A program made the translations under genes and the position numbers. Under the pieces are notes generated by a model, which saw only the letters and a list, made by a program, of their open reading frames with translations, was not told where the DNA came from and made no database searches. Of a stretch of 64,000 nt of DNA, positions 16,100 through 43,882 are shown one piece after another (positions within the stretch are counted from its first letter, which is position 1; each line of letters opens with the position of its first letter). The DNA is from Candidatus Eiseniibacteriota bacterium (lineage in GTDB: Bacteria; Eisenbacteria; RBG-16-71-46). The stretch spans positions 3,321,599 to 3,385,598 of the forward strand of contig OY970178.1 in assembly GCA_963707915.1 (NCBI GenBank), written 5' to 3'.

Positions 16100-16326
16100 T
16101 CTCGGTTCCTGTAGATCTGCTTCTTGACTTGTTCCTTCTTCAAGCTGCCGAAGAAGGACTCCGCCACCGCGTCGTCCCGGCAGTTCCCCTTCCGGCTCAT
16201 ACTCGGCTCAATGCGATGGGAGCGACAGAATCGCCGCCCTGCATCGCTCCCGAACCGGTTGCCCTGATCGGAATGAATCAACGAATTGGTCAAAGCGGGT
16301 TGACGAAACCTCTCCAAGTCGTGCAT
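16100..16326 (-). pseudogene. IS3-family transposase (rve core) fragment
   Basis: 'LIHSDQGNRFGS...SMSRKGNCRDDAVAESFFGSLKKE' is the DDE-core C-terminal signature. The N-terminal two thirds and the true C-terminus are absent. It is truncated at the tRNA-like repeat. Confidence 0.6.
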
Positions 16327-19609: not shown

Positions 19610-19651
19610 GGCGGAGAGGTGCTGGAGCGGTTGAACAGGACGGTCTCGAAA
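19610..19651 (+). repeat. 42-bp direct repeat, copy 2: tRNA-Ser(CGA) 5' half (att-like)
   Basis: Identical to 16334-16375. Diverges right after CTCGAAA. Confidence 0.65.
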
Positions 19652-19862
19652 GCCGCTCGGAGATCAATCGCCTCCCAACCTGGGAAGTCCGCCAGCAGCA
19701 CCTATTTGCTTGTGGCCTCAGCGAGTTACGCGCGCTGGGGCCGGTTTGTTTTCATGGCCTGGAGTGGTCACGAAGGGCCACGAGAGGACTTTCACGGGGT
19801 CACAAAGGGGTCACCTTGCGGCCAGGCTTGGGGGGCGGTCATCGACTCCGGTTGTCTGTCAT

Positions 19863-23406: not shown

Positions 23407-23529
23407 TGCCCGCCGTCGACAACCTTCTGAGAGTGCCACGCTCTCTAGATGATGCCGTGACCTGTTGGTTTGCGCAGCGTAGGCTTCGTCCGGGTGTCTT
23501 GACCTCAGCCCCTCATCGAGGTGGATCCA

Positions 23530-24498
23530 ATGATCTCTGCACTAGATGCAGTGTATCCCGAAGACGGCCTCTGCCGCATCCTCGCGTTGGACGGTGGTGG
23601 GGCGAAGGGCTTCTATACCCTCGGGGTGCTCAAGGAAGTGGAGGGGTTGCTCGGGTGTCATCTCCACAAACGCTTTGATCTCGTCTTCGGGACGAGCACC
23701 GGTGCCATCATCGCCTCCCTGATCGCGCTTGGACACAGCATTGACGAGATCCACGCGTTGTACAAAGCCCACGTTCCTCGCGTCATGGCCGAGCGCTCCC
23801 CCCGGGGTAGGGCAGCGGCCCTCGAGCGCTTGACCAAGGAGGTCTTTGGAACGAAGTCGTTCGAAGACGTCAGGACGGGTGTCGGGGTCATCGCGACGAA
23901 GTGGTCGATCGAAAGACCGATGATCTTCAAGGGAAGCGTTGCGCAAGCCCACGGCCGTAGAGGGACATTCACGCCAGGGTTTGGGGTGACGATCGCCGAC
24001 GCGGTCAAAGCTTCCTGCTCTGCCTATCCGTTCTTCGATCGCACCACCTTGGTGACGTCTTCGGGGGATAGGGTCGAACTCATCGACGGAGGATATTGCG
24101 CGAACAACCCGACGCTCTACGCGATCGCGGATGCGGTTGCCGCGCTGGGGAGAGACACCAAGGACCTGCGGGTTGTGAGCGTGGGGGTGGGAAGTTACCC
24201 CGAGCCAAAGCCGGGATTGAAGATGTGGCTGGCGAAGAAATACCTTGTTAGCGTCCAGCTGCTGCAGAAGACACTCGAGATCAACACGCAATCAATGGAT
24301 CAGCTCCGAGCGATTCTGTTCCGCGAGGTCCCCACTATTCGGATCAGTGACGCATTCGAGCACCCGGAGTTGGCCACGGACCTCTTGGAGCATGACCTCG
24401 CAAAGCTCAACCTCTTGCACCAACGTGGGAGGGAGTCATTTGCGTCGAGAGAAGACCAGCTGAAGGCCTTTCTCCTACCTAGCGGGACGACAGCATGA
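23530..24498 (+). CDS. capV: Patatin-like phospholipase (CBASS CapV-like effector)
   Basis: 'LALDGGGAKG', 'GTSTGAIIA' (GxSxG), 'DGGYCANNP' (DG dyad). A 4-nt ATGA overlap links it to the next gene. Confidence 0.75.
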   Translation: MISALDAVYPEDGLCRILALDGGGAKGFYTLGVLKEVEGLLGCHLHKRFDLVFGTSTGAIIASLIALGHSIDEIHALYKAHVPRVMAERSPRGRAAALERLTKEVFGTKSFEDVRTGVGVIATKWSIERPMIFKGSVAQAHGRRGTFTPGFGVTIADAVKASCSAYPFFDRTTLVTSSGDRVELIDGGYCANNPTLYAIADAVAALGRDTKDLRVVSVGVGSYPEPKPGLKMWLAKKYLVSVQLLQKTLEINTQSMDQLRAILFREVPTIRISDAFEHPELATDLLEHDLAKLNLLHQRGRESFASREDQLKAFLLPSGTTA

Positions 24499-25388
24499 CA
24501 ATCCCAGAAGCGCAGTTTGAAACCTGGGCGCATCAAGGCTCAATCGCACAGTCACGCGACACCTATGCCTCAGTGGGTCGTGTATTGCGCGCGTCGGACA
24601 CCCCGTACTCCGGGAAGGCGTACCGTGTGTTCCTGCAGGGATCTTATGGCAACGACACCAACATCTATGCGGAGAGCGACGTCGACGTCGTGATCTGCCT
24701 GGACGAGTGCTGGGGCAGCGATCTCTCGGAGTTGTCAGGGCCGGAAAAGGCCGCGTACGAGAGCTCTCACGTGACGGCGACGTATTCTCATGTGGACTTC
24801 AAGCGCGATGTGCTGGATGTCCTCAGGGCGCAGTACGATGACGACGTTGAGGCTGGGGACAAGGCCATTGCGATTGCCGCTAACGGCAACCGCAGAAGAT
24901 CGGACGTCATTGTCTCTACGGAGTTCAGGCGCTACAGGCGTTACGTGAACGCCACCGACCAGGACTACGTGACCGGAATCTGCTTCTTCAACAAGTCCGG
25001 AGCGCGCATCGAGAACTACCCCCGGCAGCATTCAGAGAACCTGACACGTAAGCATCAAAGCGCGGGAAATGGGCTGAAGCCAATGATTCGGGCCCTTAAG
25101 AACCTCAGGGGGAGGCTGGTCGACGACGGCGTGATTGAGTCAGATCGTGCGCCGTCCTACTACCTCGAGGGACTGCTGTACAACGTGCCAGACGAACTGT
25201 TTGTCACAAGCCTCCAGCAGACGTTCGTAAACAGCGTCAACTGGCTACAGTCTGAGGCGGACAAGGCGAAGCTCTTGTGCGCGCATGAGTTGTACTATCT
25301 CCTCTGGGATGACTCTCCGACATCGTGGCCAAGAACTCATTGCGACGAGTTTCTTTCGGCCGCGACTGACCTGTGGAACGAGTGGTGA
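24495..25388 (+). CDS. SMODS/CD-NTase-type nucleotidyltransferase (copy 1)
   Basis: 'LQGSYGNDTNIYAESDVDVVICL' (GS...DxD), third acidic 'RRSDVIVSTE', 'ENYPRQHSENL...IRALKNLR'. Confidence 0.7.
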   Translation: MTIPEAQFETWAHQGSIAQSRDTYASVGRVLRASDTPYSGKAYRVFLQGSYGNDTNIYAESDVDVVICLDECWGSDLSELSGPEKAAYESSHVTATYSHVDFKRDVLDVLRAQYDDDVEAGDKAIAIAANGNRRRSDVIVSTEFRRYRRYVNATDQDYVTGICFFNKSGARIENYPRQHSENLTRKHQSAGNGLKPMIRALKNLRGRLVDDGVIESDRAPSYYLEGLLYNVPDELFVTSLQQTFVNSVNWLQSEADKAKLLCAHELYYLLWDDSPTSWPRTHCDEFLSAATDLWNEW

Positions 25389-25424
25389 GCAAGTACTCGG
25401 GCCGGTAGTCTCGGACTTCCGTCA

Positions 25425-25510
25425 TTGTCCGTTTCGATCTTCAAGTCCGGCAGGTAGAAGTCCGTGGTCTCGAAGAGCCAAGTTCGAAGACGGACGCAAG
25501 TGGTCCGCCA
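25425..25510 (-). pseudogene. Relic 0 of a serine-recombinase 3' end
   Basis: Minus-strand 'CVRLRTWLFETTDFYLPDLK' versus the intact 'DDVRTWLKKDKWLPLPRLD'. The 14-nt GAGCCAAGTTCGAA (25475-25488) is identical to relic A. Confidence 0.45.
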
Positions 25511-25827
25511 CTCACAGGAGAGTTTGGGCCAAGCGAATACATGTCGCCCCCGTGGGTTACGACCCGCGGGGGCGATCTTGTGTCTTGGCAGATCTGGGCG
25601 CCTTGGGGAGCGTTCGGGCAGCCGAAGGAACCGCAGAATGGGACAAGAACGGTGACAAGAATCAGAGATCACTTGCGCCGCGATCGACGGCCGTGCGCTA
25701 GGCCGGGTGCCCGGCGTTCGTCGAGGACTCGGGGCATGGGATTCCGGCGGGTGGCGTCTTCTGGTGGTCACGGATGGACACGAGAGAACAGCGAAGGACC
25801 CGTTAGGCCGCCAAAGTAGCAACCATT

Positions 25828-25850
25828 TGGTAGCCAGAATCCGGCTACCA
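25828..25850. promoter_or_regulatory. Perfect palindrome, candidate operator of the LexA-like repressor
   Basis: TGGTAGCC-N7-GGCTACCA, located 36 nt upstream of a TTGACG -35 element. Confidence 0.35.
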
Positions 25851-25885
25851 GAGCAGCGGTCTAGGCGACCGCGTGGCCGCAACCC

Positions 25886-25913
25886 TTGACGAGCCCGCTG
25901 GGGGGTGTATGCT
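25886..25913 (+). promoter_or_regulatory. Sigma70-like promoter of the LexA-CBASS-Ubl operon
   Basis: TTGACG, 16 nt, TATGCT. ATG 25924 lies about 10 nt downstream (short or no leader). Confidence 0.3.
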
Positions 25914-25923
25914 GCTGTATGCG

Positions 25924-26556
25924 ATGACTCTCCGACCTCTCACCCCCAAGGAATTCCAAGCTCTCCGGCACATCCGGAACTGCCTGGCACATGGCCAACC
26001 CGCGCCCACCGTTCGCGAGCTAAAGGACCTGCTGGAGTACCGGTCACCACGCTCCGCGGCGGTAATTCTGGAGCGGCTTGCTGCCCATGGGTTCATCCGC
26101 CGCCGTCCGGATGGCCAGCTCCAGCTGCTCCGCGATCTGCCGGAGGGAGCCGCCCATGCGCGTACCGTGCCCGTGCCGCTCGTGGGCGCGATCGCCTGCG
26201 GCGCGCCGCTTCTGGCCGAACAGAACATCGAGGCGATGATTCCGGTCTCGCTCTCTCTCGCCCGTCCGCCGCACAACTACTTCATGCTTCGCGCGAAAGG
26301 CAACTCTATGAACCGCGCGGGCATCCAGGATGGTGATCTCGTGCTCGTCCGACAGCAGCCAACTGCCCAGGACGGCGACCGGGTGGTCGCCCTGATCGAT
26401 GACGAGGCTACGGTCAAGGTGCTGCGACGAGCGGGCGATGCGATTGCTCTCGAACCGCGTTCAACGAACAAGCGGCACGAGCCCATCCTCGTGACTACGG
26501 ATTTTCAGGTCCAGGGCGTTGTCGTCGGAACTATTCGTGCCCCGCGTATGAGGTAA
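25924..26556 (+). CDS. LexA-like repressor (wHTH + S24 autopeptidase)
   Basis: 'LTPKEFQALRHIRN...PTVRELKDLL', 'VPLVGAIACGAPL' (cleavage-site region, Cys-Gly in place of Ala-Gly), 'GNSM' Ser and 'EATVKVL' Lys. The start was chosen downstream of the predicted promoter; the track ORF starts at 25873. Confidence 0.75.
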   Translation: MTLRPLTPKEFQALRHIRNCLAHGQPAPTVRELKDLLEYRSPRSAAVILERLAAHGFIRRRPDGQLQLLRDLPEGAAHARTVPVPLVGAIACGAPLLAEQNIEAMIPVSLSLARPPHNYFMLRAKGNSMNRAGIQDGDLVLVRQQPTAQDGDRVVALIDDEATVKVLRRAGDAIALEPRSTNKRHEPILVTTDFQVQGVVVGTIRAPRMR

Positions 26557-26565
26557 TCTTGCACC

Positions 26566-27438
26566 ATGGCCATTTCCGAACAACAACTCGCGAGCTGGGC
26601 CAAGGGGCCGGGTGCCACCGAGCAGGAGCGTTGCGACACGACTGTGCGCCGCATCACTGAGGCCCTGCGTCCGTTCTACGGTAGCCGAGTGACCATCTTC
26701 CCGCAGGGCTCGTATCGGAACCGGACGAACGTGCGGCAGGACAGTGATGTAGACGTGGCGGTGGTCGAGAGCTCCGCCTACATTGGCGATACGTCGCGGA
26801 TGGGACCTGAGGCTTTGGCGCGGTGGAACGCGATGTCTCCAGCCAGCTACACATTCGCGCAGTTGAAGGCGGACGTGCACCAACAACTCACCGCCGCCTT
26901 CGGGCCACGTGTTGAACGCCGTAATAAGTGCATCTTCGTACCTGAGACCGCCAGCGGCGTTGACGGTGACGTTGTCCCCGCCTTCGAGTACCGGCTGTTC
27001 GACTACAACGGCTACAAGACGGCCAGCGGCATCGCTTTCTACGCTGACCGGGGCGGATTGTTCACCAGCTTTCCGCAGCAGCACTACGATAACGGGGTGG
27101 CGAAGAACGACCGGACGCAGCGGATGTACAAGCGAGCGGTGCGCATCCTCAAGAATGCTCGGAACACCCTCGTAGAGAACGGGCAGCTGGGGGACACGTT
27201 CGCGCCGTCATTCTTCCTTGAATGCCTTACGTACAACGCGGCCGACCGAGTGTTCTTGGCAAGCACCTATACCCAAAGCATCAAGCAGGTGATCGAGGAC
27301 CTTTGGGAAGCAACCAAGCCCAGTCGCAGCGGGAGCCTCGTGGAAGTTAGCGAAGTGAAGCCGCTCTTCACGGCCGAGCACACCGCGGACGAGGCACGCA
27401 CGTTCCTGCGAACCGCCTACACGTTCATCGGGTTCTGA
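26566..27438 (+). CDS. SMODS/CD-NTase-type nucleotidyltransferase (copy 2)
   Basis: 'FPQGSYRNRTNVRQDSDVDVAVVE', 'GVDGDVVPAFEY', 'SFPQQHYDNGVAKN...VRILKNARN'. Confidence 0.7.
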   Translation: MAISEQQLASWAKGPGATEQERCDTTVRRITEALRPFYGSRVTIFPQGSYRNRTNVRQDSDVDVAVVESSAYIGDTSRMGPEALARWNAMSPASYTFAQLKADVHQQLTAAFGPRVERRNKCIFVPETASGVDGDVVPAFEYRLFDYNGYKTASGIAFYADRGGLFTSFPQQHYDNGVAKNDRTQRMYKRAVRILKNARNTLVENGQLGDTFAPSFFLECLTYNAADRVFLASTYTQSIKQVIEDLWEATKPSRSGSLVEVSEVKPLFTAEHTADEARTFLRTAYTFIGF

Positions 27439-27440
27439 GC

Positions 27441-28070
27441 ATGGGCATTCAACTCCATCGCGCAAGCCATTTCGTCCTCTTCATCTTAGTGCTGCCGCTC
27501 CTCAGCTTGGCGTTGGCTTGGGAATGCAGCCGAGTCGTGGCGATGGTGGTTCCCCCTGGCTGGGCATTTGCCGTCGATTCGGTCGGCACGATCGGCGCCT
27601 ACGGTCTTCTGTTCAAGGCCTTTGACCTCTGGCTTTGGCGGTGGCCGGCCTTTCGCTCCCTGGGCATCGTTCAGCCCCCTCTCATGGCAGGCCGGTGGGT
27701 CGGTTCATTGCGTTCCTCCCATGACAATCATGAGACCCGCCACGAGGCCGTGGTGGAAGTACGCCAGAGCTTCACTTCTGTGCGCGTGGCCATGTACTTC
27801 GCGGGCTCGCGATCGGCCAGCCTGATCGCGGGGTTTGCGCAGGAGGCGGATGGTGGCGTGGCGCTCCACTACGAGTACCAGAACGTGCCGTCCGTTGATG
27901 CTTCGCGGACCATGCACATTCACTACGGCACGGCCACGCTCCAGTGCGTCCCGGGACGGCCGCGGATGGAGGGGCACTACTACAACTGGGGACGTGACGA
28001 GAGAGGGCACTACGGAGTGATGGAGTTCTCCTTCGAGAGCGCTAAACTACTGGGCCGGTTCTCCCAGTGA
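27441..28070 (+). CDS. 2TM + beta-rich effector (Cap15 / S-2TM-beta-like)
   Basis: Two N-terminal hydrophobic helices ('FVLFILVLPLLSLALAW', 'VGTIGAYGLLFKAFDLWLW'), then a beta-strand-rich 130-aa domain. It starts 2 nt after the NTase stop. Confidence 0.55.
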   Translation: MGIQLHRASHFVLFILVLPLLSLALAWECSRVVAMVVPPGWAFAVDSVGTIGAYGLLFKAFDLWLWRWPAFRSLGIVQPPLMAGRWVGSLRSSHDNHETRHEAVVEVRQSFTSVRVAMYFAGSRSASLIAGFAQEADGGVALHYEYQNVPSVDASRTMHIHYGTATLQCVPGRPRMEGHYYNWGRDERGHYGVMEFSFESAKLLGRFSQ

Positions 28071-28124
28071 CGCTCACGAACTGAGTCCACAACGCATTAA
28101 CTAACTAAGAGAAGGAGATAACGT

Positions 28125-28382
28125 ATGGACACGCAGGACAAAGTAAAGACCGTCACGATCATCGTGGAAGGCACTCCGCACGAGTGGCCCAAGGGTGAGA
28201 TCACCTACGCGGAGGTCGTCACTCTTGAAGTGCCGGACTACGCGCAGCACCCGGAGATCACGTACTCGGTGACCTACAAGCGCGGGCACGGCGAGAAGCC
28301 CGAAGGGATTCTCGTGAAAGGCGGCTCGGTCAAGGTAAAGGACGGGATGATCTTCCGTGTTTCAGAAACTGGTCAGTCATAA
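28125..28382 (+). CDS. Ubiquitin-like beta-grasp protein (multiubiquitin-domain type)
   Basis: AAGGAG RBS. 'VTIIVEGTPHEWPKGEITYAEVVTL' and 'GSVKVKDGMIFRVSETGQS' resemble the multiubiquitin family found with prokaryotic E1/E2. Confidence 0.55.
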   Translation: MDTQDKVKTVTIIVEGTPHEWPKGEITYAEVVTLEVPDYAQHPEITYSVTYKRGHGEKPEGILVKGGSVKVKDGMIFRVSETGQS

Positions 28383-29544
28383 CGACGACTTGGGTCGTTT
28401 GGTCGACAAGGGTTATGCCGTCGGCTTCGACCCGGGGCTTCTGATTGTTCGTGATATCCCGTACCTGGATGACCAGAAACGACTGCAGATTGGTGCGATT
28501 GTCGCGAAGCTGGTTCTCATCGACGACGACCGAGTCAGCCAGGACGATCACCAGATCTACTTCGCTGGCTCTGCCCCTTGCGACGTCAACGGCTCGGCGA
28601 TCCCCAATCTCGCTGGCGGCTCCGCCAGCATCCCGATGAGCGACGCAAACAAGGACGTGGTCGTTCAGCGGTCGTTCTCTAACAAGCCTCGTGCCACGGG
28701 GAAGTTCGACAACTTCTTCGACAAGATCGAGAGCTACGTAGCGATCATTTCGGGTCCAGCCATGGAGCTGTACCCCGATGCGACTCCCTTTACGTTCCAC
28801 GTCGTGACGACCTATCCCGGGTCGGTATTCAAGTTCCACGACACCCTTACAAGCAGAGCTGAAATCGGAGATCTGTCCGGGAGGTTCAAGGACGACATCA
28901 TCGCGGTCATTGGACTTGGTGGCACCGGCGCGTACCTGCTGGATCTTCTGACGAAGACGCAGGTGCGCGAGATCCGCGCGTTCGACCACGACCACTTCTA
29001 CGTGCATAACGCCTTCCGGTCTCCAGGGCGACTTCAATCAGGAGAACTCGGAAGGCTGAAAGCGGACGTGTACCGGGACCGCTACGACTCGTTTCGAACC
29101 GGGCTCTCGATCGAGAGGAGACTGATTGACGCCTCCTCGGTGGACGCGTTGGACGGCGTGACCTTCGCGTTCGTGTGCGTCGACAAGGGCTCGTCGCGGG
29201 CGGGCGTATTCGATGCCCTTCTTTCCAAGCGCATCCCGTTCATTGACGTCGGGATGGGCCTGAAACGCAGAGACGGCAGCCTGAACGGAATGCTGCGCGT
29301 CACCTACTTCTCGTCGGAGGATGGTGGGCAGGTGCGCGCGAAGGGACTCGCTGAACTGGCCGACACGCCGGACGACCTCTATCGAACCAACATCCAGACC
29401 AGCGAGTTGAACGCGCTGAACGCTGCCTTGGCCGTCGTGAAGTTCAAGAAGCTCCGAGGCTTCTACTTCGAGGAAACGCCCTACTACCATCTTCTCCACG
29501 ACGTTGGAGACTCCACGATGGTCGGGGAATCGGAGCTGACATGA
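28357..29544 (+). CDS. E2-like domain fused to a ThiF/E1 adenylation domain (6E/Bub-type)
   Basis: N-terminal 'HQIYFAGSAPC' E2-like His..Cys. C-terminal Rossmann 'VIGLGGTGAYLLDLL', 'FDHDHFYVHNAFR' and 'FVCVDKGSSR'. Overlaps the Ubl gene by 26 nt. GTG start is uncertain. Confidence 0.6.
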   Translation: MFQKLVSHNDDLGRLVDKGYAVGFDPGLLIVRDIPYLDDQKRLQIGAIVAKLVLIDDDRVSQDDHQIYFAGSAPCDVNGSAIPNLAGGSASIPMSDANKDVVVQRSFSNKPRATGKFDNFFDKIESYVAIISGPAMELYPDATPFTFHVVTTYPGSVFKFHDTLTSRAEIGDLSGRFKDDIIAVIGLGGTGAYLLDLLTKTQVREIRAFDHDHFYVHNAFRSPGRLQSGELGRLKADVYRDRYDSFRTGLSIERRLIDASSVDALDGVTFAFVCVDKGSSRAGVFDALLSKRIPFIDVGMGLKRRDGSLNGMLRVTYFSSEDGGQVRAKGLAELADTPDDLYRTNIQTSELNALNAALAVVKFKKLRGFYFEETPYYHLLHDVGDSTMVGESELT

Positions 29545-29942
29545 GGTTCAGGCTCCAGCGAGTTGAGTACATGCCCAAGACCCTGGAGCCGGGGGTCCTG
29601 TACGTCTCAGAAGCTTTCGGCACAGCAGCGCACCTCTGCGCCTGCGGTTGCGGCTCCAAGATCAGGACACCACTCGGCCCCACTGAGTGGCACGTCGAGG
29701 TTACGAAGCGGGGACCAAGCCTGTATCCCTCCGTCGGGAACTGGCAGAAGCCCTGTCAGTCGCACTACTGGATTCGCGAGGGCAACGTGCGGTGGGCAGC
29801 GAAATGGACATCGGAGGAGATTGCCACGGGTCGCAGGCACGAGGAGGAACGCCGACACGCGTACTACGACTCCGGTCGTCCAGCGCCCGGGAATATCCTG
29901 GCGAGATTCTGGTGCTGGCTGAAGCGTCTGCTTGCTCGCTGA
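29541..29942 (+). CDS. DUF6527-like protein (candidate Ubl protease of Bub-type operons)
   Basis: 'LYVSEAFGTAAHLCACGCGSKIRTPL...YPSVGNWQKPCQSHYWIREGNVRW'. ATGA overlap with the E1 gene. Confidence 0.5.
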   Translation: MRFRLQRVEYMPKTLEPGVLYVSEAFGTAAHLCACGCGSKIRTPLGPTEWHVEVTKRGPSLYPSVGNWQKPCQSHYWIREGNVRWAAKWTSEEIATGRRHEEERRHAYYDSGRPAPGNILARFWCWLKRLLAR

Positions 29943-29986
29943 CCCAGCTTGTCCACAGAAGGTGCCACTCTAGTGTCGTACCCCCT

Positions 29987-30295
29987 CTAGGCAGCTTCGC
30001 TGCTTCGTGGCACACTGACTTCACCCTTGAGCCGGTCGAGCTTCGGCAGCGGAATCCACGCGTGTTTCTTGAGCCAAGTTCGAACGTCGTCCCTCATGGC
30101 GCACCAGCGTCGTTTTGGTGCATCCACCCCCACGAAAAGTGGATAACGAGCAGACCGACCGCCAATCAAGGCGGTTTTGTTGTTTGCGGTAGGGGGGTGG
30201 ACGTGACAACAGAGACGCGAAACGGTGAGTTATACCCAGAAGCGAGGACGTTCGAACTCGCGGCAAGAGTTCGAAGCGACTACTTGACCAGCCCC
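29987..30295 (-). pseudogene. Relic A of a serine-recombinase 3' end
   Basis: Minus strand 'QVVASN...' and 'WCAMRDDVRTWLKKHAWIPLPKLDRLKGE' parallel the intact 'QAVASNF...WCALRDDVRTWLKKDKWLPLPRLDRLVES'. It is interrupted by a stop and frameshifts. A 21-nt stretch is identical: 30074-30094 = 32087-32107. Confidence 0.7.
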
Positions 30296-30409
30296 TGAGG
30301 ACATGGTTGGGTGACTAAGTGGATTGTTCGTTTCGCACAACATTCAATTCGTTCCTCCCTTGCCTGATGCTCGCACGCATGGTGTGCGCAGCAGTCCAGG
30401 GGAGGAACG

Positions 30410-30676
30410 ATGCGCAGGTTGCGGTTGCTTCCGATAACGTTCGGGCCGTCCTATGAGGTCGCACCGACCCCCGGCACGAAAGCTGCTGCCACCTGTACGG
30501 TCGTCGTCGCGGCGGTCGTGCTGGTAGCGGTTGCAGTTGCCGTGGTGAGATGGCCGTGGGTCGCCATGCTCGCAGGTGCCGTGGCCGCATTCACCTGGGG
30601 ACGGAAACACTACGGTGGTGACGCAATCATCGTGGGTATCGTGCTCCTTGTCGCGGGGTTGTCTCTGCTGAGGTAG
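30410..30676 (+). CDS. Small multi-TM membrane protein (hypothetical)
   Basis: GGGGAGGA RBS 4 nt before the ATG. Two or three hydrophobic helices. Confidence 0.35.
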   Translation: MRRLRLLPITFGPSYEVAPTPGTKAAATCTVVVAAVVLVAVAVAVVRWPWVAMLAGAVAAFTWGRKHYGGDAIIVGIVLLVAGLSLLR

Positions 30677-30759
30677 GTGCAATCGCACCTTCCAGAGTTA
30701 TCGCTCGCGGGTCGATCTCTTCGGAGTTCGACCCGCTTCTTCTTGTCTCATCAACTCAG

Positions 30760-30987
30760 ATGACGGCCATGGAACATGACCAACGTTTTGCTCTGGGGCT
30801 GACCCAGGCTGAGGTGGATCGACTGCGCGACATTATCCATCGGACTCGTGGCGTCACGTTATCGGAGCAAGAAGCGTGGGTGTGTGCAATCCGGCTTCTC
30901 AGTCTCGGACTGACGACTCTGAAAGCGACCGCGCCGAAGGAAGACATCCACAAGGATGAGACATGCGTGGTGCGTCCGCCCCTCTAG
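30760..30987 (+). CDS. Small hypothetical protein, paralogue of 33628-33834
   Basis: 'QRFALGLTQAEVDRLRDIIHRTRGVTLSEQEAWVCAIRLLSLGLTTLKAT' versus 'QRFALGLTEAEVDRLRDILRRTRGLELTREEAWAKAIQLLSLGWTILQAT'. Confidence 0.5.
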   Translation: MTAMEHDQRFALGLTQAEVDRLRDIIHRTRGVTLSEQEAWVCAIRLLSLGLTTLKATAPKEDIHKDETCVVRPPL

Positions 30988-31110
30988 GCAGCAACGCCTT
31001 TTCGTGGCAAACTATCTTCGCTCTTCAAACGATCAAGCTTGGGCAGCGGAAACCATGGAGTTTTCTTGAGCCAGGTTCGAACGTCCTCCACGATGGAGCA
31101 CCAAGAACGA
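30984..31110 (-). pseudogene. Relic B of a serine-recombinase 3' end
   Basis: 'WCSIVEDVRTWLKKTPWFPLPKLDRLKSE...AA*'. Core GAGCCAGGTTCGAACGTCC at 31068-31086. Confidence 0.65.
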
Positions 31111-31169
31111 ATCTTCGAACAAAAACACAAATCCAGCTTGATTCCATTAATCAGAGCTGAGTTCGAACT

Positions 31170-32033
31170 ATGAGACACAAGTTTCCAGACAACTTTGTAA
31201 CTATTGGCCATTTTGGCTTAGAGCAGCATTACTCAAAACATGCTCCACACGACATTCTTACAAAGTTACGCCATACATTAGGTTCCCTGATTGGATCTGA
31301 AGGAGACGTGGTGTATGTTTTTATCCTCATAAGAAAGCTTCTAGAGTTAGATAAACATAAACGAGTCTTTCCGACGTTGTCGCTGATATGTGATTGGATA
31401 GCACATGTGCGGCTCGATAGAAATAGCACTGGTTACAAAATCATCGAGAATATAGATCGGGAACTCTATTTCAAATACGCCGTGCTTGATAAACGACCGT
31501 ATGATCGGAATAGGACAAAAGCACAGGAGCGGCATATAGAACGTCAACTTGCGGGCTTATGGACATTGCGTGGCGAGTTGAGATTCTTCTTACGCCATTA
31601 TCATCTCCCGATTACGATTGTAAATAAAACCCCATCATGGAACCGATTACGTCGTTTTCTGTTTAATGCTCTCGCGAATAGTCCCCTCACAGTTCAAACA
31701 GCTGACGATCTATTAGTAATAAAAAGCATCTCATTCACTTCTGTTTGGCACGAAGCTCAACCCCAATCATCCAGGGCAAGAAATCTATTTAACGATCCGC
31801 CATACCCCAGATGTAGAATTCTAGTTAAGGATGGGATAATGCTGCCAGGAACTGAGCATATGAATCCAGAAGATGAGCAGATTATAGAGGTCTCATTAAA
31901 GACTGTAGACATTCGCGACTTTATTTCCGAGGAGGAGTTTGTTAAACTTCAAAAGACGATGAAGGATCTTCCAGAACATTTCTTCAAAGACGATCCCAAA
32001 ACTACCGGAACCACCCGAACCAAATCATCTTAG
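31170..32033 (+). CDS. Orphan hypothetical protein in an AT-rich (about 40% GC) cassette
   Basis: 287-aa ORF with Lys/Ile/Phe-rich composition that differs sharply from its neighbours. Its stop overlaps the recombinase stop. No motif recognised. Confidence 0.55.
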   Translation: MRHKFPDNFVTIGHFGLEQHYSKHAPHDILTKLRHTLGSLIGSEGDVVYVFILIRKLLELDKHKRVFPTLSLICDWIAHVRLDRNSTGYKIIENIDRELYFKYAVLDKRPYDRNRTKAQERHIERQLAGLWTLRGELRFFLRHYHLPITIVNKTPSWNRLRRFLFNALANSPLTVQTADDLLVIKSISFTSVWHEAQPQSSRARNLFNDPPYPRCRILVKDGIMLPGTEHMNPEDEQIIEVSLKTVDIRDFISEEEFVKLQKTMKDLPEHFFKDDPKTTGTTRTKSS

Positions 32034-33589
32034 CTTTCAACGAGACGATCCAACCGAGGTAGTGGCAACCACTTATCTTTCTTTAACCAAGTTCGAACGT
32101 CGTCCCTTAAGGCGCACCAATTGCTAATGAGCCCTTGTCCTTCGATGAAGGAGAAGGGTTCGTTGGCTTTGTAGAGCGGTTCCTTGCCTTCGACCGCGAA
32201 GTTCGAAGCGACGGCCTGGACAATTTCCCGTCGTTGAACTCCGACCCCGCGCTCGAAGGCCGCCGCGCAGCGGTTCGTGAACTGGAAGAGCTCGGTCGCG
32301 CGCTGGAGGTACTCCTCCGGCTCGGTCGGCGGAACCTCGAGCTGCAGCTTGAGCTTTGCCTGTCGCTCCAAGATCTCAAGCCTTCGCTTCTCGAAGAGGT
32401 CCTCGTCTACCTGCCCGCGCAGCCGAAGCGTGAGCAGCGTTTCGCCCTCACGCAGGGACGCGCCGAGGGCCTCCTGGAGCGAGCGGTGTGAGGCTGTGTC
32501 GGTCACGGTCTCCGCCTCCAAAGTGTGCTTCAGGTTCTCCGTCACCCATCCGACCACTTCCTCCGGCACGGCCACGGCATGCAGGGTCTTCTGGATCGCC
32601 GTCTCGAAGTCCGGCTCCGGAATGCAGGTCGCATGCGGACAGGGCGTGCTTCTCCCAAGGCCATGACAGCGGTAGTACACGTAGGTTCGACCTGACTGCT
32701 TGCGGTGCTGCTCGCCGGTCAGAAGTCCGCCACACTTGCAACGCAGTAGCCCGCCGTAGGGGAACTCGTGACGCGCCGGGCGGGCGCGCCCTGGCCGACC
32801 AAGGATACCGGCCGCACGCTCGAACTCCGCCGGGGTGACCATCGGCTCATGGCCGCCGCGGTAGCTCTCACCGCTGCGCAGCTGGATGAGCCCCATGTAG
32901 TAGGGATTCTGGAACATCCGGTAGAGCATCGTGATGCACATCGGCCGGCCGCCCAGTCGCGCCGTCTTGCGCGTGCGGAAGCCCCACTCCTCGGTTGCCA
33001 GCTTGAGGATCTGCTTGGGGCGGAGGCTATCGGTGAGCACGAGGTCCCACATCTTGCGCACGAGCGTGAACCGCTCGGGGTCTTTCACGACGGTCTTGGT
33101 CGCATGGTCCTCGATGTACCCCAGGGGCGGGCGGAAGTTCGGCCAGCCGCGCTGGAACCGCGCACGGTTGCCGCGCCGCACGTTTTGCCGCAGATCGTCG
33201 ATGAACTTGGTGGCGATGCCGAGCTCGAAGTTGCCCATGAAGCGGTCATTGCCGTCAGCGGTGTACGTCCGATCCGAGGTGATGACGGTGAGCTTGTGGT
33301 CGGCCAGCGCTTGCAGGACCCGGCCGGTGTCGGCGTGGTTGCGCGCCAGCCGGTCGAGCTTCCAGCACAGCACGGTCGCGATCTCGCCCTGGGACACGCG
33401 GCGCATCAGTTGATCGAAGACCACGCGGCCCGGAGCTTTAGCCGAGCGCGACTCGGAGAGGATCTCCGCGACCTGGTGCCCATGGCGCAGCGCCAGGAGT
33501 TTGAGCTCTTGGACTTGGGAGTCGATGGAGAGGACCTGCCGATCCTCGGATTCGCTGGATTTCCTAGCGTAGATGACACATTGCGGCAT
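32030..33589 (-). CDS. Large serine recombinase
   Basis: 'CVIYARKSSESEDRQVLSIDSQ' (catalytic Ser), 'LCWKLDRLARN', recombinase domain, Zn-ribbon 'LRCKCGG...YYRCHG', coiled-coil tail. Confidence 0.9.
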   Translation of the reverse strand: MPQCVIYARKSSESEDRQVLSIDSQVQELKLLALRHGHQVAEILSESRSAKAPGRVVFDQLMRRVSQGEIATVLCWKLDRLARNHADTGRVLQALADHKLTVITSDRTYTADGNDRFMGNFELGIATKFIDDLRQNVRRGNRARFQRGWPNFRPPLGYIEDHATKTVVKDPERFTLVRKMWDLVLTDSLRPKQILKLATEEWGFRTRKTARLGGRPMCITMLYRMFQNPYYMGLIQLRSGESYRGGHEPMVTPAEFERAAGILGRPGRARPARHEFPYGGLLRCKCGGLLTGEQHRKQSGRTYVYYRCHGLGRSTPCPHATCIPEPDFETAIQKTLHAVAVPEEVVGWVTENLKHTLEAETVTDTASHRSLQEALGASLREGETLLTLRLRGQVDEDLFEKRRLEILERQAKLKLQLEVPPTEPEEYLQRATELFQFTNRCAAAFERGVGVQRREIVQAVASNFAVEGKEPLYKANEPFSFIEGQGLISNWCALRDDVRTWLKKDKWLPLPRLDRLVES

Positions 33590-33610
33590 AGAGGTCTAGG
33601 TAGTGATGCC

Positions 33611-33655
33611 TCAAGTTCGAAACGCAGTCAAGAGGGAGGACCTTCGAACTCGCGG
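33611..33655 (-). repeat. Relic D: collapsed recombinase-3'-end-like sequence just upstream of the intact recombinase start
   Basis: TCAAGTTCGAAACG (33611-33624) resembles the core CCAAGTTCGAACG. 33636-33655 matches 30244-30263 at 19 of 20 positions (GAGGAC[C/G]TTCGAACTCGCGG). Confidence 0.5.
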
Positions 33656-33834
33656 GGTTTCCTTGAAGAGGTGGCCTGGAGGATGGTCCAGCCGAGGGAG
33701 AGAAGTTGAATCGCCTTGGCCCACGCCTCCTCGCGCGTGAGCTCCAGCCCGCGCGTGCGCCGCAAGATGTCGCGGAGGCGGTCCACCTCCGCTTCGGTCA
33801 GGCCAAGCGCGAAGCGTTGCGTTCGAGCATCCAT
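33628..33834 (-). CDS. Small hypothetical protein, paralogue of 30760-30987
   Basis: ATG at 33834 ('MDARTQRFALGL...'). The C-terminal 'PREFEGPPS' is encoded by relic D sequence. Confidence 0.5.
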   Translation of the reverse strand: MDARTQRFALGLTEAEVDRLRDILRRTRGLELTREEAWAKAIQLLSLGWTILQATSSRKPREFEGPPS

Positions 33835-33998
33835 GCAACCATGATCGCGCAGGAGTAGCGACCGGCGTAGGGGGGAGGACGTCCACAGGGCGAGCTTCGC
33901 TGTGCATAGCGACAATCGAATCCCTCTTCCACAGACATGCACAGTTTGCGCACCTCCACCCCCCTACAACGATTCCCTGGCAGGACTATCGTGGAAGC

Positions 33999-34280
33999 AT
34001 GTTGGTGCAATACACCAAGCGAACGTGGCGAAACCGGCCGCGCTTCCCCAACAAGATCCGCGAGTACCGCCTCAAGGCCGGCATCTCGCAGAGCAAGCTC
34101 GCCGCCCTGCTCGGCCGCGGCCGCAACGCGGTCTCGTCCTGGGAGCGTGGACTGTCGCTGCCAAACGTGCCGCGTCTCCTACGCATGGCGAAGATCCTCG
34201 GCACACTCTCCGAGGCGCTCTACTTCCAGTTCTACTCCACCCAGGGAGCAGATGGTGAGCTCAGCGGCACTGCGGCATGA
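33999..34280 (+). CDS. XRE-family HTH regulator
   Basis: 'IREYRLKAGISQSKLAALLGRGRNAVSSWERGLSLPNVPRLLRMAKIL'. Confidence 0.75.
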   Translation: MLVQYTKRTWRNRPRFPNKIREYRLKAGISQSKLAALLGRGRNAVSSWERGLSLPNVPRLLRMAKILGTLSEALYFQFYSTQGADGELSGTAA

Positions 34281-34762
34281 GGGAGCGTCTCTTGCGCTGG
34301 TTCATGGCCCACGCCAACGGTCGCGGCGTGGTGCTGGGCCGAAGCGAGGTCATGGAGGCGGAGCTGGACGCAGCGTCTGACGTGCTTCAACAGGAGCTCA
34401 CAGCATTGGAGCGGGAGGGAGTCGTCGAGATCATCGCCCCGCTACCGTTCCTTGTCCTTCGACTCAAGAAATGGTCTGGCAGGGGCCAACAAAGCACCTT
34501 TGCCTATAGCTCTCTGCTATCAAACAATCAATTGATTGAAAGCAACAGCCATAGGCACGATCCACTCCTCCACGAGATCCTCGAGACACTCGGGGAGACG
34601 GACGTGAAGGCGTTCGCCCCGGTGCTCGAGCACTACTCCCCGCAGATCATTCGCACCGCTCTGAGAAGGGTCCGCCGCGCCCGCGGCATCCGGAAGAGCC
34701 GCACCGCGCTCTTTCGCCACCTGCTCCCGCGACTCGCGCAAGCCGAACCCGAGCGCAACTAG
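34277..34762 (+). CDS. Hypothetical wHTH-like protein (paralogue 1)
   Basis: ATGA overlap with the XRE gene. C-terminal 'IIRTALRRVRRARGIRKSRTALFRHLL'. Confidence 0.45.
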   Translation: MRERLLRWFMAHANGRGVVLGRSEVMEAELDAASDVLQQELTALEREGVVEIIAPLPFLVLRLKKWSGRGQQSTFAYSSLLSNNQLIESNSHRHDPLLHEILETLGETDVKAFAPVLEHYSPQIIRTALRRVRRARGIRKSRTALFRHLLPRLAQAEPERN

Positions 34763-34770
34763 CCCTCCCC

Positions 34771-35301
34771 ATGTCCTCGCTCCAACCCATCACCCTTACC
34801 CTCGATCGCCGCATCCTCGAGCATCCGCGGGCCTACCACCTGCGACGCATGCGCGCGGGACTCTGGCTCTACCTCGACCTCTTGGCCCGGCTCCCGGCCG
34901 ACGCTGAGACGTTCGAGGTGGAGCCCGCGGCGGTCGGGCGGGACATGGGGCTCCCGGAGGGCACGGTCCGCTCCTGGCTCGGGCACCTGCGAAAGGCCGG
35001 CTACCTCGACGCCGTGCGCCTCAACGGCAAGGTCCGGGTGACGATCAAACGGGCCGCAGCGCCGGAGACCCCGGCAGAACCCCCGACGCCGACACGCTTC
35101 TTCACGGTCGCCAAGCTCCAGCGAGCGCTCGGCGAGCCGGGCAACGCCGAGGCCTTCGAGGCCGCGCTCAGCCTCTACCCGGACGACGGTCGTGAAGCGC
35201 GCCCTCGCCGGCACGCTGGCGGTGCCCGAGACCCAGATCCGTCGCTCACGCACCGCGCTCTTTCTTTACCTCCTACAACACGCCATGCCCAAGAAGACTG
35301 A
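34771..35301 (+). CDS. Hypothetical wHTH-like protein (paralogue 2), apparent frameshift near 35185
   Basis: 'GLPEGTVRSWLGHLRKAGYLD'. The paralogous tail 'VVKRALAGTLAVPETQIRRSRTALFLYLL' lies in the next frame. Confidence 0.4.
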   Translation: MSSLQPITLTLDRRILEHPRAYHLRRMRAGLWLYLDLLARLPADAETFEVEPAAVGRDMGLPEGTVRSWLGHLRKAGYLDAVRLNGKVRVTIKRAAAPETPAEPPTPTRFFTVAKLQRALGEPGNAEAFEAALSLYPDDGREARPRRHAGGARDPDPSLTHRALSLPPTTRHAQED

Positions 35302-35802
35302 CACCATCCTCGCCCTCGATCCCGGTCTCCGCGACCTCGGCTACGCCGTGCTCCACGGCCGCCGCCTCGTGGCCAGCGGCGTGCTCGCGCTGCGGCGCGT
35401 CCCGAAGGCAGAACGTCTCGCGCACAGCGCGCAAGCACGTGCGCACGTGGCTGCGAACGCACCGTCCGCAGCGTCTGGTCGTCGAGAAGACCTACCGCCA
35501 TCCGGTGCCGTGGCTCGATCGAGCTCCACCGGCTCACGCGCAGGCCCGGAACCTCGCCACCCGCCAGCACACCGCCTTCGCCATGTACTCGCCGCAGACG
35601 CGTCCGCGCGACCGTCGCCGGCAACGGCAAGGCCAAGAAGCCCGAGGTCGCCATCGCCGTCGCGCATCCGCTTCCCGCAGCTCCGGGTCTACCTCACGCA
35701 GGACCGGCGCTGGAAGGAAGCGTACTGGCAGAACATGTTCGACGCGTCGCGCTGGCGCTCCATCACCAAGCAGCGACGCAACCGCCCTCCCGCAGCCGGT
35801 GA
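35285..35802 (+). pseudogene. RuvC-like Holliday-junction resolvase, copy 1 (about four frameshifts)
   Basis: Pieces in three frames: 'TILALDPGLRDLGYAVL', 'RPQRLVVEKTY', 'VRATVAGNGKAKKPEVAIAV', 'NMFDA' followed by 'VALALHH'. Confidence 0.55.
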
Positions 35803-35895
35803 TCCGGCCGACCCTGGCGCCTCCGCCTTGCCGAGCGCCACTGTCTCGGAAGGGGTCCGCAAGGGACCTCCGACGAGCAGCCCTCGGGAGGGCAT

Positions 35896-36427
35896 TTGAT
35901 TCACTACACACTCACCCATGAACACACCAAGACCATCCTCGGCATCGACCCCGGCACGAAGGAGATGGGCATCGCCGTGCTTCGCGGCCGAAAGCTGCTC
36001 GCGTACGGCGTGCACACGCTCCGCAACGGCGAGCGGCCCTACGACGTGATCGGCCAGGCCCGGCGGGTCGTCTTGGAGTACCTCGAGCGCTATGCCCCGG
36101 AGGTGGTGGCGATCGAGGCGCCGCTGCATGTTGCCGACCAAGCGCGCGGCGATCCTCTCGGTCATCGCGCAGGAGCTGCGACAGAGGGCGAATGAACTCG
36201 GCCTCGAGGTCCTTGAGCTCACGCCGCAGGAGGTGCGGCAGCGGGTAGTCGGGAACCCGCGCGCGACCAAGATTGACGTCGCGGAGGCGCTGGTGGCACG
36301 GGGGTTCGAGGAGCTCAAGGATCTTGTGCCAAAGCGACCGACCCGGGCAGCCTTGGGACTCAGGCCGGGCCAGAAGTACTGGCTCCACATGTTCGATGCG
36401 CTGGGGCTCGCTTGGGCCATCACCTGA
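35896..36427 (+). pseudogene. RuvC-like resolvase, copy 2 (frameshifts near 35930 and 36130)
   Basis: 'TILGIDPGTKEMGIAVL', 'PEVVAIEAPLHV', then in another frame 'TPQEVRQRVVGNPRATKIDV...HMFDALGLAWA'. Confidence 0.55.
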
Positions 36428-36683
36428 GTGCCCCCACGTGCAGCGCGCGAATGACCTATTGCGGCAGAGCACGATTGCGACTAGTGTACAGTCGTATACG
36501 GTTTGCTCTCAGCCCACTTTGTCGGGATCCGCTGCGCCCCCTATGCCTAAGGGCAACCCTAGTGATCTCACGAGCAACGAGGGCCGCCATGCCTGGTTGC
36601 GTCAGTCCCTTCATGGTTGCGCTCACGCCCTCTAGCCGGGCGGTGGACCGAGTTACGGCGAGCGGCCCGGAGGTTCCCCACCC

Positions 36684-38123: not shown

Positions 38124-38326
38124 CGATGCCACCTCGGCCGCAACAAGCCAACCCCGTAGGCCTCGGGGGCAGCAACCTCGATCACCTTGTTCGACGCATG
38201 CGGTGTGCGGTACGGTATGCAGTTGCCGTTGAGGGAAATGACTGGGGCGCGGCGACTTCGCTGCAAGACGCCAGGTTCGTCCGAGCAATCGGACCCCCAG
38301 CCTAGACTGCGGAACGCAAGCAAGAC

Positions 38327-38719
38327 TCACTCTAAGTACGTGATCTCTCCCTCTTTGTAGCCAGGGGCGAGCACGGTGAAGAAGCACAAATCCGAATCGC
38401 CTAGATTTCGGATGCTCAGCGCGTCACCAGATTTCACATAGATAAAGACTGGATGCTCTGGATCAGCAGTGAATGGGCCGCTCACTGAAGTCGCGGTCCT
38501 TACCTCGAACTGGCCACCGAAAAGGAAGAGGACTTCGTCGCCGCTATTGGGTCTATTCTGAAAGTGGTGACTTTGTTGCTCTCTCGGTCGAACCCGAGCA
38601 AAGACAGCTGTCGCATTAGGCGTATCACTCAGAATTCTACCGTGGAGGTTCTCCTCCTGAAAGAACTCCTCGGGTCGCTCGGTGACTCTGATGATTTGTG
38701 TTTCGATCATTTCGCTCAT
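38327..38719 (-). CDS. Cupin-fold protein
   Basis: 130 aa, 'HHFQNRPNSGDEVLFLFGGQFEV...IYVKSGDALSIRN'. Confidence 0.5.
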   Translation of the reverse strand: MSEMIETQIIRVTERPEEFFQEENLHGRILSDTPNATAVFARVRPREQQSHHFQNRPNSGDEVLFLFGGQFEVRTATSVSGPFTADPEHPVFIYVKSGDALSIRNLGDSDLCFFTVLAPGYKEGEITYLE

Positions 38720-38826
38720 ATAGCGCCCACCGGGTTATTGGCTAAAGTGGCCTGTACAGGAGAAGGCTAGCACAAACGCTCTCGCGCCGCCACTCGGCAA
38801 TCACGGTCAGAGGAGGATGACAGCTT

Positions 38827-39654: not shown

Positions 39655-39727
39655 GCTGCGGACGCCCGCGTGACGGAGTCTCAGATGTTGCCGGGCATGG
39701 TCGAGCGTTACATAGGAGGTGCGCTAC

Positions 39728-43862: not shown

Positions 43863-43882
43863 TTAGCCAAAGTCGGCCCCAT

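Follow-up and report, generated by a model that had tools for sequence, protein, structure and literature searches.

In the composite islands of the staphylococcal cassette chromosome (SCC), Ccr serine recombinases mobilise tandem, often recombinase-less and defence-rich cassettes between repeats of the rlmH 3′ end (PMC11470126). Islands in tRNA genes (tDNAs) form tandem arrays with one target fragment per island and are built by tyrosine integrases; serine integrases were stated as not known to target tDNAs (PMC4383910), and a literature search found no later report of tDNA-targeting serine integrases. The integrative and conjugative elements (ICEs) of Streptococcus that use a serine integrase to enter rumA have their site in the integrase 3′ end, and the C-terminus is exchanged on integration (PMC4701971). 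For tyrosine integrases of the Mx8 IntP and SSV type, a site inside the integrase's own gene with exchange of the C-terminus has likewise been described (PMC4383910; PMC7253208). Here, a stretch of 64,000 nt from the genome of Candidatus Eiseniibacteriota bacterium (assembly GCA_963707915.1, contig OY970178.1, positions 3,321,599 to 3,385,598; this whole stretch is called the window) was analysed, in which one intact gene for a large serine recombinase (LSR), here termed rec, is accompanied by repeats of its own 3′ end and by defence genes lying between them. With a probability of roughly 60%, small integrative defence islands or cassettes accreted here in tandem at an LSR attachment site inside rec, and all recombinases but one were then lost. 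The parts of the window on which this reading rests are listed below; related loci are numbered with L and proteins with P.

32030-33589, minus strand: rec, intact LSR of 519 aa with the Pfam domains Resolvase, Recombinase and Zn_ribbon_recom.
32030-32119, minus strand: module C, the attachment (att) module within the rec 3′ end, with the TGG of W491, 22 nt, TTCGAA at 32092-32097 and a tail ending in ...WLKKDKWLPLPRLDRLVES and the stop codon.
30976-31103, minus strand: module B, complete, with a full-length tail ending in ...LDRLKSEDSLPRKGVAA and the stop codon, then TAGAGGGG.
29979-30106, minus strand: module A, complete, with a tail ending in ...LDRLKGEVSVPRSSEAA and the stop codon.
25385-25510, minus strand: module 0, of type 0 (W-RTTCVRLRTWLFETTDFYLPDL...), with the same geometry of TGG, 22 nt and TTCGAA (at 25483) as the others.
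33627-33661, inverted: core copy within the last codons of orfX (...PREFEGPPS and stop), directly upstream of TTGAC.
33628-33942, minus strand: orfX, a small conserved open reading frame (ORF) directly upstream of rec, called as a gene before rec in L003-L011.

The single intact recombinase of the window is rec, as the initial annotation had stated. Its N-terminal Resolvase domain corresponds to PF00239 (E=2.6e-20), it also matches PF07508 (Recombinase) and PF13408 (zinc ribbon), and its length lies above the 400 aa by which LSRs are recognised, being about 10 aa shorter (519 aa) than in close relatives (529-530 aa). The catalytic residues Y7, A8, R9, K10 and S11 together with D79, R80 and R83 are invariant in an alignment of 35 homologues, and the nearest solved structures, at weak similarity, are the TP901-1 and SPbeta integrases. 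No named equivalog of NCBIfam was matched, the models of CcrA/B/C giving only 31-43 bits at cut-offs of 700-900. At E<=1e-20 at least 2146 homologues were obtained, and at E<=1e-30 there was no match among 72,556 plasmids or 50,697 phages; IMG/VR contained one distant family member and no exact match to the module. For orfX neither a Pfam nor an NCBIfam match was obtained; it may be a regulator or a directionality factor.

For the detection of further gene ends a tail profile was built from the 35 full-length family members only, since circularity was to be avoided, and was searched against all 1470 six-frame fragments of the window. Exactly four matches resulted, all on the minus strand (module B 1e-14, module A 4.6e-11, module 0 3.1e-8 and the intact gene 3.3e-8), and the next best match in the window had E=0.1. 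The repeat search gave direct repeats of the rec 3′ end at 29982-30106, 30979-31103 and 32042-32119 (76-78% identical) and module 0 as a weaker copy at about 25433-25510 with a 14-nt core match at 25475-25488. The same-strand repeats described initially are thus real, and their number is four instead of five: the supposed collapsed relic at 33611-33655 consists of an inverted core only, which is promoter-proximal and conserved in relatives. Similarly, the relic placed at 29987-30295 is present as module A, its right part being a second inverted core at 30236-30268, and the copies, once thought to reach 100 codons, span about 29-39 codons. The identities quoted for these copies were reproduced (21 nt shared by 30074-30094 and 32087-32107; 19 of 20 positions between 30244-30263 and 33636-33655).

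The module has a length of about 125 nt and sharp bounds, extending from the TGG of W491 to about 8 nt beyond the stop codon (TAGAGGGG), and reads in gene orientation TGG, 22 nt, TTCGAA and the tail WLK..PW.PLPKLDRL....PR...AA with the stop codon; beyond both edges the sequences of the copies are unrelated. The right end TAGAGGGG is common to modules A and B of the window and to L003, L005, L008, L092 and L093. The last 120 residues of the family were turned into a profile, which matched five relics of three genomes (modules A, B and 0 of the window; L001; L002) no further upstream than W491 minus 3, and the PFSF region, which is strongly conserved 12-15 codons upstream, is missing from all five. 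No in-frame recombinase remnants were found upstream of the relics; frameshifted ones were not searched exhaustively. That the relics are independent decayed recombinase pseudogenes from unrelated insertions, without a shared junction, would agree with the extra divergent recombinases found in L002 and L045. Against this, none of the five relics shows homology upstream of W491, all start at the same codon and the right ends are shared; as the five align only from W491 onward and lack the PFSF region, independent decay of whole genes is ruled out, and this explanation is hardly credible. A shared junction had been anticipated in the initial annotation, and since it exists and the cargo varies between relatives (see below), neither the lack of a shared junction nor an invariant cargo, both named there as fatal to a stacking of cassettes, was obtained.

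Compared with the rec gene of L003, that of the window is identical at 63/63 nt before the TGG of module C, at 18/22 thereafter and at about 60% in the tail. This collapse of identity at the module, together with the low GC content of the window tail (0.45, atypical for the gene), which resembles that of the adjoining orphan gene (40% GC), speaks for tandem accretion. In module B the tail is 91% identical to the intact tail of L003 and the 22-nt segment before the core, called the P arm, is identical at 16/22 positions (73%). The tail of module 0 (WRTTCVRLRTWLFETTDFYLPDL) is the C-terminus of genuine recombinases of another subfamily (P0124 and P0127); module 0 is therefore a different module subtype and not merely an older copy. 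The initial annotation had noted that the most diverged relic lies farthest from the intact gene. As an observation in its own right, the nucleotide conservation of 32120-32185 (rec codons about 470-490) is far above that of the remaining gene, with 63/63 positions shared with L003 and 42/45 with L005, whose rec is overall only 75% identical; a conserved TTCGAA (32202) lies near this block, which may extend the arm of the site or act as an anchor for recombination.

Constraint acts on the core as DNA and not only as peptide. In 42/44 family members the codon for Arg in the (D/E)DVRT(W/F) motif is CGA or AGA, two codons that account for 27% of the Arg codons elsewhere in the same genes, and from 54 aligned sites the motif GA.GA.G-TT(C/A)GAA-C(C/T)T was obtained, in which T, G, A, A and C carry full information content. 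Against an expectation of 0.08, the window contains the core pattern CCARGTTCGAACGTCSTCC five times, three times in direct and twice in inverted orientation (30243-30261 and 33635-33653). The hexamer TTCGAA is present 24 times in the window, 11 of these in 25483-33643. Five extra copies (30270, 31114, 31162, 32202 and 33616) lie within 30-190 nt of modules and in the rec promoter spacer, at about 1.2 expected in that 8 kb, and may be accessory sites or remnants. The crossover possibly lies within or beside TTCGAA, with GA as the candidate dinucleotide: GA is non-palindromic and common to TTCGAA and TTAGAA, and the repeat that bounds an island in L049 (see below) ends exactly at ...TTCGAA. A crossover at the TGG edge was rejected as the main model and is considered improbable, since the relic junctions share no conserved sequence left of the TGG.

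The inverted core at 33627-33661 is found at the same place in L001, L002, L003, L005, L008, L013, L017, L019, L020, L024, L025 and L037, and the TTGAC next to it, a -35-like element before rec, is conserved even in distant relatives. Resolvases repress their own promoters at res, and by analogy this copy is probably a promoter-proximal binding site, i.e. an operator for autoregulation. Inverted copies flank rec in the window and in relatives, and an orfX copy between modules A and B was apparently split by a local inversion, so that one might think of a switch in which the rec body between the inverted cores at 33635-33653 and 32087-32105 flips like Hin/Gin and is uncoupled from its tail. Such a switch is very improbable. 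All of the 12 or more relatives inspected show the same orientation, the upstream copy abuts the conserved TTGAC as fits an operator, the enzyme is a 519-aa LSR and not a small invertase, and the direct repeats would be left unexplained. Deletion or inversion between the operator copy and the core was also tried as an origin of the recombinase-less units and rejected, since the predicted junctions do not fit module A.

The origin of the site is indicated by distant relatives. In 16 of them (35-40% identity) the rec reading frame encloses the 3′ end of a tRNA gene that ARAGORN predicted on the other strand, with tRNAs for Leu, Gln, Trp, Ala, Lys, Ser, Val, Glu, Arg, Asn and His represented. The C-termini W..RDSNPRP are explained by this overlap, the CCA end being read in antisense as TGG and the T-loop as TTCGAA. 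A complete island of 9.6 kb is present in L049, in which the end of the intact tRNA-Lys gene at 11471 recurs at 1917 as a fragment of 23 nt (TGGAGGGCCAGGTGGGATTCGAA), the LSR is the sole recombinase, an operon led by a LexA-like gene converges on the left junction, and the genes outside are MurT and GatD. With its intact tRNA gene, displaced 3′ fragment and integrase beside the tRNA gene, its sublocation in T-loop and T-stem and the tandem arrays of the family, this agrees with the tDNA islands recognised by Islander/TIGER. The window differs in having neither a tRNA gene nor a displaced tRNA fragment: its repeats are tRNA-end-like sequences (the P-arm sequence TGGTGCGCC is identical to the end of the tRNA-Arg of L074) in which the spacing to TTCGAA is about 5 nt too long. 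ARAGORN and Rfam detected no tRNA or structured RNA in the window at gathering thresholds, nor at E<=1 over 14.5-34.5 kb, by which a tRNA or structured RNA within the relics was ruled out. The idea of a lineage that first targeted its own gene family is thus replaced, the site being best read as the attP/attB core of a tRNA-targeting LSR island family. In L005, about 9 kb downstream of rec, the minus strand at about 20560-20615 looks like a tRNA 5′ half (GGCCCCGTAGCTCAGACGGATAGAGCAGCGG) pointing towards rec; ARAGORN made no call there and Rfam gave no support, and the fragment may be a remnant of the original tRNA target.

Between and beyond the modules of the window, the following cassettes and cargo elements are located.

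23521-25388, plus strand: distal cargo, a type I cyclic-oligonucleotide-based anti-phage signalling system (CBASS; patatin effector and CD-NTase) converging on module 0.
25511-29978, plus strand: cassette E4 with a LexA-like repressor, CD-NTase, Cap15-type effector with two transmembrane segments, Multi_ubiq, E1-like protein (DUF6791/ThiF) and DUF6527.
30107-30975, mixed strands: cassette E3 with a hydrophobic ORF, the 5′ part of a second orfX copy, an inverted core and a hairpin.
30157-30186, plus strand: terminator-like hairpin of E3.
30230-30270, minus strand: orfX-type 3′ end of E3 (...SCREFERPRFWV and stop), which holds the inverted core at 30236-30268.
30410-30676, plus strand: hydrophobic ORF of E3, 88 aa.
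30760-30987, plus strand: 5′ part of the second orfX copy of E3, 67% identical to orfX over 54 aa (E=4e-24), with its first 61 codons at 30760-30943.
31104-32029, plus strand: cassette E2 with one orphan gene (31170-32033, 287 aa, 40% GC).

All cargo is encoded on the plus strand, antisense to rec, and each unit converges on the next module, in accordance with the layout first described: the type I CBASS ends at 25388, the E4 operon (with a promoter-like site at 25886-25913) at 29942 before module A, and the pair of small genes at 30987, and the stop codon of the orphan gene overlaps that of rec. The orphan gene matched no family; its sole homologue (P0122, 60% identity) lies in the module array of L092 among different neighbours. 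In E3 some 500 nt separate the two parts of the orfX copy, which are encoded on different strands; a local inversion is implied, of which one breakpoint adjoins the TTCGAA at 30270. Because these rearranged remains of orfX and operator adjoin a P arm without a recombinase, E3 is taken to be a decayed island. On the plus strand, terminator-like hairpins with T-runs stand at 25543-25586 and 30157-30186, 35-50 nt beyond modules 0 and A, so that cargo transcripts would run through the module and end just after it.

The arrays of relatives were followed to 10 kb and further only where a relic had been called as a gene (P0125). In the genomes encoding P0001 (96% identical to rec) and P0003 and P0004 (75%), the DNA on the 5′ side of rec is shared with the window, and the backbone common to close relatives comprises orfX, an HTH repressor-like gene, two conserved hypothetical genes and RuvC-like genes, with PDDEXK_1 and RadC further on. 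From the module onward the defence cargo of these close relatives is wholly different, as had been foreseen, and consists in one case of DUF3644, a TIR protein, HNH and a helicase, in a second of HEPN_AbiV, an OLD-like protein and two SMODS proteins, and in a third of an SMC-like protein, DUF4411 with an M78 peptidase, and ThiF. Among about 35 loci with at least 3 kb of sequence past rec, 7 overlap a tRNA gene and 10 carry a downstream direct repeat of the rec gene end like the window. Most of what they enclose are defence or conflict genes (AbiE twice, an NYN nuclease, a MzaB-like ATPase, LexA with TPR-GreAB-PIN and a LexA-led type III CBASS), and the left edges of the repeats lie 15-22 nt from the TTCGAA core, about one recombinase half-site. 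The segment bracketed in L002 represents an intermediate state, with its own orfX-like gene and a second recombinase (38% identical), and its two repeats are 94-95% identical over about 190 nt, so that the event must be recent.

The L004 contig (96%-identical rec) carries two type-0 modules past rec, at distances of 24.6 and 26.3 kb downstream and both in the same orientation. Window positions 25415-25761, which include 250 nt of flank, are 82% identical to the first of these (L093 8054-8399). As rec and the distal type-0 module occur in both the window and the L004 contig, they are shared by descent, whereas the distance between them is 6.5 kb in the window and 24.6 kb in the L004 genome and everything between differs. 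This is expected if turnover occurs between rec and the distal module, and it is no proof of rec-proximal insertion. The L092 array consists of two minus-strand modules with cores TTCTAA or TTCTCA, towards which the plus-strand cargo runs, and no recombinase gene lies within 16.5 kb; an orfX-like ORF noticed there by eye was not supported on comparison.

These findings can be joined in a model of tandem accretion. The LSR family would carry its element-borne site inside the last approximately 30 rec codons, the ancestral target, kept in many relatives, being a tRNA gene 3′ end read antisense, with the TGG of W491 as the CCA end and TTCGAA as the T-loop. In the window subfamily this site would have turned into a self-contained module of about 125 bp composed of TGG, the 22-nt P arm, the GTTCGAAC core and a tail with the last approximately 25 residues and the stop codon. 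A circular island would carry P-core-P′, with P inside rec and P′ completing rec, and its integration beside a resident copy would create internal junctions P(i)-core-P′(i+1), i.e. full modules with foreign DNA upstream. Each such junction would consist of the P arm of the left unit, the core and the tail of the right unit, a structure that modules B, A and 0 match exactly, and the unit adjoining rec would donate the C-terminal tail and the stop codon. Each unit would bring a defence operon transcribed towards the junction, and only the first unit would have kept its recombinase, the others being decayed or naturally recombinase-less and at most mobile through the resident enzyme in trans, as are SCC-like cassettes and cis-mobilisable elements (CIMEs). 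The two inverted cores would serve as binding sites near promoters, probably in autoregulation, and that of the decayed E3 would be a leftover. Tandem accretion followed by decay is preferred because E3 keeps its own orfX and operator remains and the second island of L002 keeps its recombinase. The array would have been made by recombination at the core, and its units may still be mobile today.

Several points weigh against this model. Neither a circular form nor an empty site or population polymorphism was seen, the contigs with identical recombinases all having one arrangement, and the left end (attL) of the rec-bearing unit was not found in the 64 kb with two nhmmer site models and the tail profile; there is no site-like TTCGAA context to the right of 34 kb, and none at the conserved backbone end at about 47.5-48.5 kb. 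The modules are homogeneous in type, with type-1 P arms joined to type-1 tails and type-0 to type-0, whereas a simple crossover at the core would lead to a hybrid at the boundary between the two types. The breakpoints also diverge, identity of the window to L003 breaking at the TGG edge and that of module B to L003 (tail 91%, P arm 73%) at the core, and the CG centre of TTCGAA is palindromic, so that polarity would be lost if CG were the crossover. Canonical LSRs recombine attP with attB and not like with like, and stacking of like sites would therefore need a directionality factor, for which orfX is a candidate, or unusual properties of the enzyme. Finally, the model gives no reason for the P arm of 22 nt to be retained each time rec was deleted, unless recombinase-less units were selected for mobility.

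The lack of any finding of mobility is also what a fossil array would show, in which old tandem islands decayed in place, the relics are inert scars and the cargo differs through homologous recombination and deletion between conserved flanks. The rec genes are indeed mosaic (identity to L003 falls to 83-88% mid-gene), the unusually conserved rec block just before the module could have served as a recombination anchor, and the altered cores of L092 point in the same direction. This history is nevertheless quite unlikely: the relic modules keep sharp ends and the exact geometry of TGG, 22 nt and core, A, B and 0 retain a perfect TTCGAA, neutral scars would not keep coinciding boundaries in five relics, and the highly similar repeats of L002 testify to a recent event.

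Alternatively, the locus could be a dedicated cassette-capture platform, a serine-recombinase analogue of the integron, in which free circular cassettes insert at the 3′ end of a resident rec with the newest nearest to it and were never autonomous islands. E2 contains hardly any DNA besides one gene and its module, both ends of the modules are sharp and conserved and a stop codon that could complete rec is always included, the difference of everything between rec and the distal module in window and L004 fits rec-proximal insertion, and the array of L092 without a recombinase resembles clusters of attC sites lacking integron-integrases (CALIN). Some units must have been islands, though, as E3 keeps its orfX and operator remnant and the second unit of L002 a recombinase of its own; the complete family members are ordinary integrative islands (L049), the cassettes run antisense and have promoters and regulators of their own, attC-like structures are missing and no circular cassette was observed. 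A platform of this kind is consequently considered unlikely. Somewhat less doubtful, and put forward tentatively, is a working serine-recombinase cassette system with its site in the last 30 codons of its own gene, in which the module of about 125 bp of each cassette would supply both the site and a new in-frame tail and stop, rec would be rewritten with each capture and recombinase-less cassettes would be shuffled in trans, the whole having evolved from a large, previously unrecognised clade of tRNA-targeting serine integrases.

Among described systems the closest functional analogue of the accreted array is the SCC or SCCmec composite island of staphylococci. Common to both are an LSR, a gene 3′ end as target, tandem cassettes between direct repeats of this gene end, cargo rich in anti-phage genes and units without a recombinase, the window having four modules that separate E2-E4 and a single recombinase. 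Differences are that the target here is rec itself (a tRNA gene in relatives) and not rlmH, that the window repeat is a module of about 125 bp which rewrites the rec C-terminus, that rec is no Ccr orthologue and that mobilisation is putative. Accretion of ICEs and CIMEs has reportedly been described for ICESt1/3 of Streptococcus thermophilus by Pavlovic (2004) and Bellanger (2011); there, too, decayed elements retain att sites, lose the recombination module and stand in tandem with an integrase-bearing element, whereas the integrase is a tyrosine enzyme, the target is the fda 3′ end and the elements are conjugative. In the rumA ICEs the exchange alters frame and sequence arbitrarily, in contrast to the conserved in-frame tail and stop given by the incoming DNA here, and for these as for the Mx8 and SSV elements cassette stacks are not reported in the accounts cited. 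The initial annotation was not aware of a described equivalent; such equivalents are the SCC composite islands (PMC11470126) and the rumA-type serine-integrase ICEs (PMC4701971).

The same annotation had compared the architecture to an integron or a nested insertion. A cassette stack beside a recombinase gene with a repeated recombination site between cassettes is a common trait, and defence cargo is known in chromosomal integrons. Integrons, on the other hand, have the tyrosine recombinase IntI, a folded single-stranded attC and promoterless co-oriented cassettes expressed from Pc, unlike the window with its serine enzyme, its modules without attC folding and its antisense cargo with own promoters and LexA-type regulators. 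The DNA folding z-scores of modules A, B and L003 were +0.2 to +1.4 on both strands, giving no sign of attC-like folding, and -2.1 was reached by the minus strand of module 0 only. The array resembles SCC or CIME accretion and not an integron, and of the stacking of cassettes at the conserved rec 3′ end proposed initially the stacking itself is retained and its nature recast as accretion by tRNA-derived LSR islands.

Some further observations concern the cargo. In E4, Multi_ubiq, the E1-like protein (DUF6791 and ThiF) and DUF6527 (28125-29942) directly follow the CD-NTase/Cap15 pair in a single operon, which by its gene content is predicted to be a CBASS fused to a ubiquitin-like conjugation module. 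A LexA-like gene (LexA_DNA_bind and Peptidase_S24) heads the cargo operon in many cassettes of the rec family (window 25873-26556; L001 12618-13373; L002 15782-16456 and 18988-19632; L049 4280-4915), the operons being of the CBASS, TPR-GreAB-PIN, DUF5677/SEC-C and Hypoth_Ymh types, and this suggests that cargo expression is gated by DNA damage. At window positions 19632-19814, just upstream of an HTH_17/ResIII helicase gene, a conserved non-coding element of about 200 nt (GTGACCCCTTTGTGACCCC...GGCCCCAGCGCG...CTGAGGCC...) was noticed, which recurs twice in the array of a 96%-identical relative (L093 1364-1540 and 7860-8043; 79-88% identity) and may be a cassette regulatory region or a small RNA.

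On the other side of rec the window continues with the backbone common to relatives, in contrast to the cargo side.

33999-36404, plus strand: conserved backbone adjoining rec, with an HTH_3 repressor-like gene, genes for proteins of 161 aa and 176 aa, and a segment homologous to the RuvC-annotated backbone genes of relatives.

Within the otherwise conserved backbone, 36404-45336 forms a second variable region (radical SAM/B12, methyltransferase, SDR, NACHT-like STAND NTPase and NTP_transf_2), in the place of which unrelated genes stand between the same conserved flanks in L003, L005 and L008. The island as a whole (roughly 16 to 45 kb) has a GC content of about 0.57-0.65 compared with 0.69-0.78 in the host background, and the C-terminal fragment of an IS3-type transposase (DDAVAESFFGSLKK; about 16140-16181, minus strand) stands exactly where GC falls from about 0.75 to 0.58, a position that probably marks the outer border of the entire island. 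Past the conserved backbone, a further defence block with 0.58 GC at 48522-56084 contains a D12 adenine methylase, a ParB_N protein, a PRTase-CE protein and a type I restriction-modification system (HsdR and HsdM).

The locus is of interest for its clade of serine integrases that target tRNA genes, for a module that completes its own gene and for its defence cargo. The relatives of rec reveal a large LSR clade seated in tRNA gene 3′ ends, with at least 2146 homologues and 16 sampled loci overlapping a tRNA gene. The module offers a handle (TGG-N19-GTTMGAAC ... TAGAGGGG) for the mining of new defence cassettes, such as those with the 40% GC orphan gene or LexA-led operons, and a site of 30-50 bp that tolerates like-with-like stacking and a swap of the C-terminus with each event could be of interest for serine integrase engineering. 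If the proposed history is true, uncultivated high-GC soil and sediment bacteria (Eisenbacteria-like metagenome-assembled genomes) would possess a third route, besides integrons and SCC, for stacking and exchanging anti-phage systems at one locus.

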